Below are positions 24,541 to 25,158 of a stretch of DNA of 64,000 nt, one piece after another (the stretch's first letter is position 1; every line of letters starts with the position of its first letter). The position numbers and the translations under genes were made by a program. Source of the DNA: Escherichia phage ESCO5. The stretch is taken from sequence record NC_047776.2; one strand, written 5' to 3'. The notes under the pieces are model-generated. The model made no database searches and was not told where the DNA came from. It saw only the letters and a list, made by a program, of their open reading frames with translations.

Positions 24541-24569
24541 TTGACAACAAACATTATTTTATGTTAGAT
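24541..24569 (+). promoter_or_regulatory. sigma70-like promoter
   Basis: TTGACA, 17-nt spacer, TTAGAT; upstream of tRNA-Ser. Confidence 0.4.
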
Positions 24570-24578
24570 TATAAGTAT

Positions 24579-24669
24579 GGAAGGGCAAATCGACGTGGCG
24601 ACGAAAACGGTCTTGAAAACCGCCGAGCTTGAAAGAGCCTTGGGAGTTCGACTCTCCCTCCTTCCGCCA
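24579..24669 (+). tRNA. tRNA-Ser (TGA), type II
   Basis: Acceptor GGAAGGG/TCCTTCC, loop CTTGAAA, long variable arm; close to E. coli Ser(UGA) arms. Confidence 0.65.
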
Positions 24670-24674
24670 GATTA

Positions 24675-24760
24675 GGTAGATTGGTGAAATGGTAGCCACG
24701 ACAGTTTGCTAAACTGTAGTCGGAAACGGCGTGTAGGTTCGAGTCCTACATCTACCGCCA
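24675..24760 (+). tRNA. tRNA-Ser (GCT), type II
   Basis: Acceptor GGTAGAT/ATCTACC, anticodon loop TTGCTAA, long variable arm, CCA. Confidence 0.6.
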
Positions 24761-24890: not shown

Positions 24891-24978
24891 GGTGAGTTAA
24901 TTCCGTAGGGGTAGCGGGGCAGACTGTAAATCTGTTATCATTGCGATTCGGGTGGTTCGACTCCATCACTCACCACCA
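24891..24978 (+). tRNA. tRNA-Tyr (GTA), type II
   Basis: Acceptor GGTGAGT/ACTCACC, anticodon arm CAGA-CTGTAAA-TCTG, long variable arm, CCA. Confidence 0.6.
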
Positions 24979-24984
24979 AATTAA

Positions 24985-25070
24985 GATGAGTTGGCTGAAT
25001 GGTTTAAGCGGCGGACTGTTAATCCGTGTTCGAAAGAACAATATAGGTTCGAATCCTATACTCATCGCCA
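24985..25070 (+). tRNA. tRNA-Asn (GTT) with an unusually long variable arm
   Basis: Acceptor GATGAGT/ACTCATC, discriminator G; anticodon arm GCGGA-CTGTTAA-TCCGT matches E. coli tRNA-Asn; ~15-nt GTTCGAAAGAAC hairpin before T-arm; 86 nt. Confidence 0.5.
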
Positions 25071-25080
25071 GAATTATGGA

Positions 25081-25158
25081 CTTGTAGAGTTAAGGTAAAC
25101 CCCCAGTCGCCAATAGGCTTCTGGAATTGCAGGTATCGAATCCTGCCGAGTCCCAGCA
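25081..25158 (+). ncRNA. tRNA-like element, anticodon arm unresolved
   Basis: Acceptor GGACTTG/CGAGTCC and T-arm GCAGG-TATCGAAT-CCTGC present; central region does not fold into canonical D/anticodon arms by eye; no CCA. Confidence 0.3.

Follow-up and report, generated by a model that had tools for sequence, protein, structure and literature searches.

The tRNA-Asn gene and its setting

The 64,000-nt stretch of Escherichia phage ESCO5 analysed here (sequence record NC_047776.2, hereafter the window) carries, at positions 24985-25070 of the plus strand, a tRNA gene that combines an asparagine anticodon with a long variable arm. In bacteria, long variable arms are, by textbook account, confined to the Leu, Ser, Tyr, and Sec tRNAs. 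Escherichia phage vB_EcoM_REC (Phapecoctavirus, Stephanstirmvirinae) matches the window at 100% identity, and its record (OM386667.1) annotates the gene as tRNA-Asn (REC_00209) within a cluster of ten annotated tRNA genes. The gene lies in the tRNA cluster of a virulent coliphage and is the sole tRNA-Asn gene called there by the prediction tools. Asparagine codons make up approximately 58 per 1000 (5.8%) in the long open reading frames of the window, whose G+C content is 39%.

ARAGORN identified a tRNA-Asn with anticodon GTT at 24985..25070 (+), 86 nt in length. The Rfam model RF00005 scored 62.1 bits at 24985..25067, compared with a gathering score of 29, and covered model positions 1-71 with all four helices; the alignment runs end to end apart from a 12-nt insertion in the variable region. 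The single-sequence minimum free energy (MFE) fold of 24985-25070 is the same four-helix cloverleaf with an extra hairpin. This hairpin, GTTC-GAAA-GAAC, is followed by AAT, giving a variable region of 15 nt (25028-25042). The gene is built as follows.

24985..25070, plus strand: whole tRNA-Asn(GUU) gene, encoded CCA included (ARAGORN, Rfam; annotated REC_00209 in OM386667.1)
24985..24991 with 25060-25066, plus strand: acceptor stem, GAUGAGU with ACUCAUC, including G1-C72, A2-U71, and U3-A70 (Rfam, MFE fold)
24994..25009, plus strand: D arm GCUG-AAUGGUUU-AAGC, three base pairs and a G13.A22 mismatch (sequence, Rfam alignment)
25011..25027, plus strand: anticodon stem-loop GCGGA-CUGUUAA-UCCGU, with the anticodon GUU at 25018-25020 (sequence)
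25028..25039, plus strand: variable-arm hairpin, a 4-bp GUUC/GAAC stem capped by a GAAA (GNRA) tetraloop (MFE fold, covariation)
25040..25042, plus strand: unpaired 3-nt linker AAU between variable arm and T stem, in a tRNA-Tyr-like register (geometry survey)
25043..25059, plus strand: T arm AUAGG-UUCGAAU-CCUAU (Rfam, alignment A1)
25067..25070, plus strand: discriminator G73 (G at 25067) and encoded CCA (25068-25070) (sequence)

It is virtually certain that this locus is a real, conserved tRNA gene. The initial annotation had described an 86-nt Asn-anticodon tRNA with a long variable arm, an anticodon stem-loop shared with E. coli tRNA-Asn, and a discriminator G. The first description is confirmed by ARAGORN, the Rfam covariance model, and the MFE fold, all of which yield Asn(GUU) with an extra arm and thereby rule out a standard 76-nt fold with another anticodon. 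The others hold as well, since G26 and the anticodon stem-loop (17/17 nt) are identical to E. coli tRNA-Asn and the discriminator at 25067 is G. The E. coli reference sequence used for this comparison is annotated as tRNA-Asn and was matched at 100% in 5,425 of 5,426 complete E. coli genomes.

The architecture conforms to neither structural class as usually defined. The 4-5-nt variable loop and 4-bp D stem of a canonical class I tRNA are both missing. The long stem-loop variable arm is that of class II, but the anticodon GUU specifies Asn rather than Leu, Ser, Tyr, or Sec. The 3-bp D stem with G13.A22 is class-II-like in its predicted pairing. The acceptor and T stems are of 7 bp and 5 bp and not in the 8/4, 9/3, or 8/5 arrangements of allo-tRNAs and tRNA-Sec.

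Conservation and covariation of the variable arm

Conservation was counted on two alignments, A1 with ten sequences across lineages and A3 with 26 distinct sequences that have a 15-nt variable region; a covariance-model alignment, A2, was left out because it drew in other tRNAs. In A1, all four arm pairs (4/4) have changed on both sides, and the arm is 97% paired, compared with 35-50% when the 3' partners are slid. Compensatory changes were also present in all seven acceptor-stem pairs. A3 again shows compensatory changes in 4/4 arm pairs; its three inner pairs are formed in 25-26 of the 26 sequences by three to five pair types each (AU/GC/UA; GC/UA/CG/AU/UG; CG/AU/GC/UG), a variety equal to that of the T stem. 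The extra hairpin of the window tRNA-Asn is far beyond chance.

The loop is GNRA in 58 of the 85 unique long-arm tRNA-Asn sequences and GAAA in 47 of them. D arms are heterogeneous across the family, and in about 25 of the 85 unique members the arm accompanies a class-I-like D stem of 4 bp, in some cases the GTTC/GAAC stem of host tRNA-Asn. Because the arm occurs with both 3-bp and 4-bp D stems, it appears to be the arm itself that is retained. Judged by this covariation, the variable arm of the long-arm tRNA-Asn is under selection.

Distribution in phages and in cellular genomes

A combination of BLAST and ARAGORN located tRNA-Asn(GUU) genes of 83-88 nt (ARAGORN lengths) in several phage groups. 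These comprise phAPEC8-like and Justusliebigvirus-like phages in the Stephanstirmvirinae, the T4-like Winklervirus and Karamvirus in the Straboviridae, the T5-like Priunavirus, Epseptimavirus, Tequintavirus, and Novosibvirus in the Demerecviridae, and phiKZ-like and other Pseudomonas phages, phiKZ itself included. The T5-like version alone accounts for 279 phage records in GenBank. When IMG/VR was scanned for the pattern of this anticodon stem with a long variable region, at least 120 contigs matched. When both lengths were accepted, 15 genes were long and 105 short among the matches listed (approximately 12% long), and the long share was approximately 20% among the matches listed at loci with at least three tRNA genes. 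The viral scans covered one anticodon-stem sequence, and their frequencies are rough.

The gene had initially been regarded as a singular oddity, a view that has to be given up, as it belongs to a large phage-borne family annotated as tRNA-Asn in hundreds of GenBank records. Its annotation goes back a long way, as the records of phiKZ and Salmonella phage 5 (AJ604531) illustrate; what is new is its architecture and distribution. The literature searched, including reviews of non-canonical tRNAs, contained no description of a long-arm tRNA-Asn; older subscription papers on T5 and BF23 lay outside the search.

Four records that name Campylobacter or Listeria as hosts carry suspect labels: MG065650.1 (Campylobacter phage B15), MG065642.1, and OR847827.1 and OR848495.1 (Listeria phage LM 4-11-1 and LM 4-14-1). 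B15 matches a coliphage query at 99.1% over a 2.2-kb tRNA region, and the other three match phAPEC8-like or T5-like coliphage queries at 96-100% over the 83-nt tRNA-Asn. These host labels are probably wrong, or the records contaminated.

Cellular genomes differ sharply from phages. The long-arm tRNA-Asn pattern had no match in the 5,426 complete E. coli genomes and only 33 matches in 185,579 cellular species. Of these 33, ARAGORN recognised 17 as long tRNA-Asn; 11 of these come from loci where seven or more tRNA genes fall within approximately 8 kb. Being recurrent in many unrelated phages and almost never found in bacteria, the long-arm design looks selected.

The cellular matches were themselves of several kinds. 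Dense arrays with 21-36 ARAGORN tRNA calls per 8 kb (loci L135, L136, L140, and L161 from Micromonospora and Verrucosispora, together with L144 and L162) hold 83-90-nt long-arm tRNA-Asn genes with U1-A72; at L144 and L162, a normal-length tRNA-Asn stands beside the long-arm one. Matches from Saprospiraceae and other Bacteroidota were ruled out as long-arm tRNAs, as they are 3' halves of tRNA-Asn or copies with a 16-nt palindrome. In the metagenome-assembled genomes (MAGs) of Bacteroidota, this palindrome, CCCGATAGCTATCGGG or a variant, replaces the variable loop (L143:5498-5800, L133, L146, L152, L158, L159, and others); L143 has three tandem units 128 nt apart beside a normal 75-nt tRNA-Asn. 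By their sequence layout, these copies look like integrated-element junctions or a palindromic insertion rather than functional long-arm tRNAs. Additionally, MAGs of Hyphomicrobiaceae and other Alphaproteobacteria (L141:3185-3229, L147:4924-4967, L148, L155) contain a conserved tRNA-like unit with a GUU anticodon loop, a GAAA-capped arm, and a T arm, with no recognisable acceptor pairing and no ARAGORN call. This unit sits directly after other irregular tRNA-like units.

Amino acid identity

The bacterial determinants of asparagine identity are G34, U35, U36, and G73 (PMC9976931). All four are invariant in A1, 116 of 119 viral copies among the matches listed retain G73, and the window tRNA has its GTT anticodon at 25018-25020 and G73 at 25067. 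The earlier suggestion of an Asn isoacceptor on a type-II-like body is consistent with this invariance across the ten-member alignment. G73 is listed as an antideterminant for leucyl-tRNA synthetase (LeuRS) and tyrosyl-tRNA synthetase (TyrRS) in the antideterminant table of PMC9976931, and for that reason seryl-tRNA synthetase (SerRS) is the only plausible competitor for the long-arm tRNA. The window tRNA has G73 in place of the A73 that marks tRNA-Tyr and tRNA-Leu.

Among the matches listed, 99 of 115 long Asn genes have an arm of 3-4 bp followed by 3-4 unpaired nucleotides before the T stem. The number of unpaired nucleotides at this place is three in 38 of 56 phage tRNA-Tyr genes and one in 78 of 127 phage tRNA-Ser genes, whose arms are of 4-7 bp. 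The window tRNA shares G73 with tRNA-Ser, but its 4-bp arm with a 3-nt linker departs from the serine pattern; the predicted geometry of the arm is Tyr-like, not Ser-like. Furthermore, G2-C71 is an element for E. coli SerRS, and the window copy has A2-U71.

The U1-A72 pair is a determinant for the amidation of Asp-tRNA-Asn by GatCAB (PMC9976931, PMC1635274). Copies from enterobacterial phages, the window copy included, have G1-C72, and all four Pseudomonas-phage copies (4/4; PA1C, phiKZ, Psa21, Y1-MI) have U1-A72, a pair that is not required in E. coli. Pseudomonas is not known to have an asparaginyl-tRNA synthetase (AsnRS) and makes Asn-tRNA by the GatCAB route. The difference at 1:72 therefore fits the Asn-charging pathways of the respective hosts. 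From these identity elements, the long-arm tRNA-Asn is likely to be an Asn-accepting decoder, and its mis-charging appears unlikely.

Relation to tyrosine, serine, and host asparagine tRNAs

The two class II tRNAs with which the window tRNA-Asn has most to be compared are encoded upstream of it.

24675..24760, plus strand: tRNA-Ser(GCU), 86 nt, variable arm GUCG-GAAA-CGGC in the register 1 nt/4 bp/2 nt (ARAGORN, Rfam)
24891..24978, plus strand: tRNA-Tyr(GUA) with A73 and its own variable arm, the upstream neighbour of tRNA-Asn (Rfam 39 bits; no ARAGORN call)

E. coli tRNA-Asn(GUU) (asnT/U/V/W), a canonical class I tRNA, has the same anticodon, the same G26 and 17-nt stem-loop, G73, and a 7/5 domain. 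However, it has the 5-nt loop AUGUC in place of the hairpin-bearing 15-nt variable region of the phage tRNA, and it combines a 4-bp GUUC/GAAC D stem with U1-A72, whereas the phage tRNA has three pairs and G.A, G1-C72, and a different D-loop. Overall identity between the two is approximately 60%. Bacterial and phage tRNA-Tyr(GUA) resemble the window tRNA in their 3-4 bp tetraloop arm followed by three unpaired nucleotides, their class-II-like D arm, and an anticodon that is one base off. They carry A73 and A36, whereas the window tRNA carries G73 and U36, a combination that switches its identity away from TyrRS. The tRNA-Asn directly follows tRNA-Tyr in the window phage and in phage VivaForever; across the long-arm family, only 8 of the 119 members among the matches listed have Tyr as their upstream neighbour.

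The closest paralogue is the phage's own tRNA-Ser(GCU), at 65% identity. This gene is also 86 nt long and has a 4-bp GAAA-capped arm, G73, and a similar T arm, but its arm register differs (1 nt/4 bp/2 nt, compared with 0/4 bp/3 nt in tRNA-Asn), as do its anticodon arm and acceptor stem. A clear descent from either Tyr or Ser was set aside, as identities to phage Ser, phage Tyr, and host Asn all fall within 60-65% and the D arms are heterogeneous.

Allo-tRNAs and (8/4) phage tRNA-Ser/His are non-canonical and partly phage-borne (Mukai et al., PMC5389517). The window tRNA resembles allo-tRNAs in having a long variable arm and an anticodon outside Leu, Ser, and Tyr. Allo-tRNAs, however, are 8/4 or 9/3 and are serylated or alanylated whatever their anticodon, whereas the window tRNA is 7/5 and has Asn elements and a Tyr-type arm.

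The same scaffold was also observed on other isoacceptors. Genes for tRNA-Lys(CUU) of 88-90 nt with this scaffold occur in Caulobacter phage CcrColossus, Xanthomonas phage X1, and Roseobacter phage DSS3P8 (L282:300-389, L283:283-371, and L284:290-377), with a GAAA-capped arm and approximately 80% identity to the long tRNA-Asn of Pseudomonas phages. In IMG/VR phage clusters, short GNRA-capped arms were occasionally present in normally class I isoacceptors for Cys (9/66), Trp (7/71), and Thr (11/101), and in a few His, Gly, Glu, and Ala tRNAs; examples are L016:9032-9115 (Cys), L025:1347-1430 (Trp), L023:4406-4492 (Thr), L189:2720-2805 (His), and L063:9423-9508 (Gly). A number of the long ARAGORN calls, among them Ile(UAU) and Phe of 96 nt, could instead reflect introns or mis-calls.

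tRNA-Asn and the PARIS defence system

AriB, the nuclease of the PARIS system, has been shown to attack E. coli tRNA-Asn(GUU) as a secondary target, cutting it between positions 40 and 41 (U36AAUC/C41, the slash marking the cut); in an AlphaFold 3 model, AriB contacts D-loop nucleotides 16-17 (PMC12409363). The same study found that a phage supply of tRNA-Asn contributes to PARIS escape, and its authors considered that viral tRNAs, when over-expressed, might act as competitive inhibitors of AriB (PMC12409363). The variable arm is nowhere mentioned in PMC12409363.

The anti-PARIS tRNA-Asn of T5 is a short, 78-nt allele with a mutated anticodon stem, a type found in 134 records. In the genomes of T5-like phages, short and long alleles share the same position, between Cys and Asp. 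The anti-PARIS tRNAs of T5 and the long-arm type are alike in being phage copies of tRNAs cut by a host immune nuclease. They differ in that the escape of T5 tRNAs relies on substitutions in the D-loop and at the cleavage site or close to it, whereas the long-arm type keeps the host stem and alters the body; the stem-loop of the window tRNA is identical to that of the host and has none of the T5-type substitutions around the nuclease site. When their sequences are compared, the short mutated-stem and long-arm alleles look like two alternative solutions.

Phage SelmaRatti, which is Bas34 (MZ501103), presents a special case. Its annotated 77-nt 'tRNA-Asn' (L278:12597-12681) joins the 5' two-thirds of a long-arm gene to a foreign 3' end; its acceptor strands, GGGTCGT and ACCCGCT, are unpairable, and ARAGORN makes no call. 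The tRNA-Asn of Bas34 was insufficient against PARIS, and T5 tRNA-Asn was needed for rescue (PMC12409363). This need is probably explained by the gene being a broken chimera.

Neighbouring tRNA-like genes

Several non-canonical tRNAs neighbouring the window tRNA-Asn escape standard tools, which matters for the annotation of such clusters. The initial annotation placed a canonical tRNA-Tyr beside the gene. A Tyr(GTA) gene with the loop CTGTAAA does lie at 24891-24978, but it is not quite canonical, given its missing ARAGORN call and Rfam score of 39 bits. In the Rfam alignment it has a 3-nt insertion after position 9, ahead of the D stem, and it is without annotation in the vB_EcoM_REC GenBank record.

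Directly 3' of tRNA-Asn, at 25078-25157 (+), lies a tRNA-like element with a 7-bp acceptor-like stem, a T-arm-like hairpin with an 8-nt loop (UAUCGAAU), no D stem, and a long irregular hairpin with a 4-nt loop in the place of the anticodon arm. It is homologous to T5 'rna3', a putative tRNA-like RNA located directly 3' of T5 tRNA-Asn, and phage VivaForever has a homologue at the same position. Neither ARAGORN nor Rfam calls this element.

A further gene, at 24579-24669 (+), resembles tRNA-Ser(UGA) and has the loop CUUGAAA, a long variable arm, G73, CCA, and an irregular extended D arm. ARAGORN makes no call here, and the best Rfam match is tRNA-Sec at 37.4 bits, under the threshold of 47. Some related phage records have two annotated tRNA-Ser genes.

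Promoter-like sites with a perfect TTGACA precede three tRNA-gene blocks on the plus strand, as consensus matches alone; the total count of promoter-like sites in the region was no higher than in shuffles. The block that holds the Asn gene is preceded by the following site.

24541..24570, plus strand: promoter-like site TTGACA-18-TAGATT with TG, upstream of the tRNA block holding the Asn gene (consensus match alone)

Discussion

We propose that the gene at 24985-25070 is a selected phage tRNA belonging to a class-II-shaped tRNA-Asn(GUU) family, that it acts as an Asn-charged decoder, and that the most likely role of its arm is anti-defence. For this reading as a whole we estimate a probability of roughly 0.62. 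The long-arm tRNA would be charged with asparagine by host AsnRS and would decode AAC and AAU; in hosts without AsnRS, the U1-A72 copies would be charged through an aspartyl-tRNA synthetase of the non-discriminating kind together with GatCAB. The Tyr-like short stem and 3-nt linker, in combination with G73, would keep off SerRS, TyrRS, and LeuRS. The arm would reshape the tRNA body and D-loop while the anticodon stem-loop stays host-like, and the reshaped tRNA could thus escape nucleases that read both body and anticodon stem, such as PARIS AriB. Evasion of an anticodon nuclease, as the initial annotation had suggested, is plausible. Taken by itself, the anti-defence role of the arm is a tentative suggestion drawn from comparative data. 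It is equally speculative that a GNRA-capped arm and a remodelled D-loop block body-gripping nucleases as an alternative to the stem mutations of T5, possibly also in Lys(CUU), Thr(UGU), Cys, and Trp tRNAs.

Several points weigh against this reading. The AriB site UAAUC/C is unchanged in the window tRNA-Asn, so that any escape from AriB would have to depend on the body alone. T5 supplies the only anti-PARIS tRNA-Asn published so far, which is of the short type, and Bas34 is uninformative on the long-arm type because its gene is a broken chimera. The correlation of U1-A72 with the host pathway draws on four Pseudomonas phages that are related to each other, and bacterial tRNA-Asn, that of E. 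coli included, ordinarily has this pair. The variable-loop side is the one from which class II synthetases approach the tRNA, and there the arm could hinder AsnRS. The viral frequencies are rough, because the scans used one anticodon stem and the matches listed are a part of the total. The literature searched held no expression, aminoacylation, or nuclease data on any long-arm tRNA-Asn. 

The geometry of the arm matches phage tRNA-Tyr, the gene directly follows tRNA-Tyr here and in VivaForever, and the closest paralogue (65%) is an 86-nt tRNA-Ser(GCU) with a 4-bp GAAA-capped arm. These resemblances are what would be expected if the gene were a working tRNA-Asn whose arm is a functionless legacy, inherited from a duplicated class II tRNA of Tyr- or Ser-like type. 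The duplicate would have undergone an anticodon shift from GUA to GUU or from GCU to GUU, together with G73, and the arm would persist only because a class-II-type core needs it for folding. The class-II-like 3-bp D stem with G13.A22 in the window copy agrees with such an origin, and the occurrence of the same scaffold on Lys(CUU), Cys, Trp, Thr, His, and Gly tRNAs fits frequent anticodon shifts in phage clusters. However, the arm is kept without a class II core in the approximately 25 of 85 unique members whose D stem is class-I-like and 4 bp long, and the conserved GNRA loop sequence goes beyond what mere hairpin stability asks for. A Tyr neighbour upstream in only 8 of 119 members among the matches listed, and Ser, Tyr, and host Asn bodies that are about equally similar (60-65%), single out no parent. 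The near absence from cellular chromosomes, compared with approximately 12% in the viral contigs listed, points to a phage-specific pressure. We regard a neutral legacy as rather doubtful, while rating it well above the other alternatives.

A mis-charging or recoding tRNA, as the initial annotation had also suggested, would use the long arm and G73 to recruit SerRS or another synthetase for class II tRNAs, and would insert Ser at Asn codons or have a dual identity. SerRS does recognise its tRNA mainly by a long variable arm and G73 (PMC7609411), serine is attached in E. coli to allo-tRNAs carrying arbitrary anticodons (PMC5389517), and the 4-bp arm of the phage's own tRNA-Ser(GCU) implies that a short arm need not exclude SerRS. 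Yet the arm register is systematically unlike that of phage tRNA-Ser (3-4 nt and 3-4 bp, compared with 1 nt and 4-7 bp), and the window copy has A2-U71 instead of G2-C71. The full AsnRS set is invariant, U1-A72 appears in the four Pseudomonas-phage copies, and G73 blocks TyrRS and LeuRS. In addition, with a sole called tRNA-Asn in the cluster and 5.8% Asn codons, a proteome-wide replacement of Asn by Ser would harm the phage. Mis-charging is thus unsupported and highly improbable. Hardly more probable is that the RNA is not primarily a decoder and instead acts on a tRNA-targeting nuclease, as a decoy or by competitive inhibition, or has some other regulatory role as a tRNA-like RNA. Inhibition of AriB by competition from viral tRNAs has been raised (PMC12409363), an anticodon stem-loop identical to that of the host would be good bait, and the neighbouring genes include tRNA-like RNAs without an anticodon loop. 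Nevertheless, every element required in translation is conserved, namely the 7/5 domain, the T loop GGTTCGAAT, G73, the encoded CCA, and an intact 7-nt anticodon loop, and the variation of the 1:72 pair with the Asn-charging pathway of the hosts is relevant only if the tRNA is aminoacylated.

An Asn-charged, class-II-shaped decoder with a selected arm therefore remains our preferred reading. A class-II-shaped tRNA-Asn is common and under selection in T5-, T4-, phiKZ-, and phAPEC8-like phages, in contrast to the textbook restriction of long arms. The records examined label the gene plainly as 'tRNA-Asn'. If AsnRS charges the long-arm tRNA, a class IIb synthetase tolerates an extra arm, which would be useful for tRNA engineering and for the understanding of identity rules. 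If the arm protects against tRNA-cutting immunity, phages would possess a second route of counter-defence, based on the shape of the tRNA body instead of mutation of the anticodon stem.

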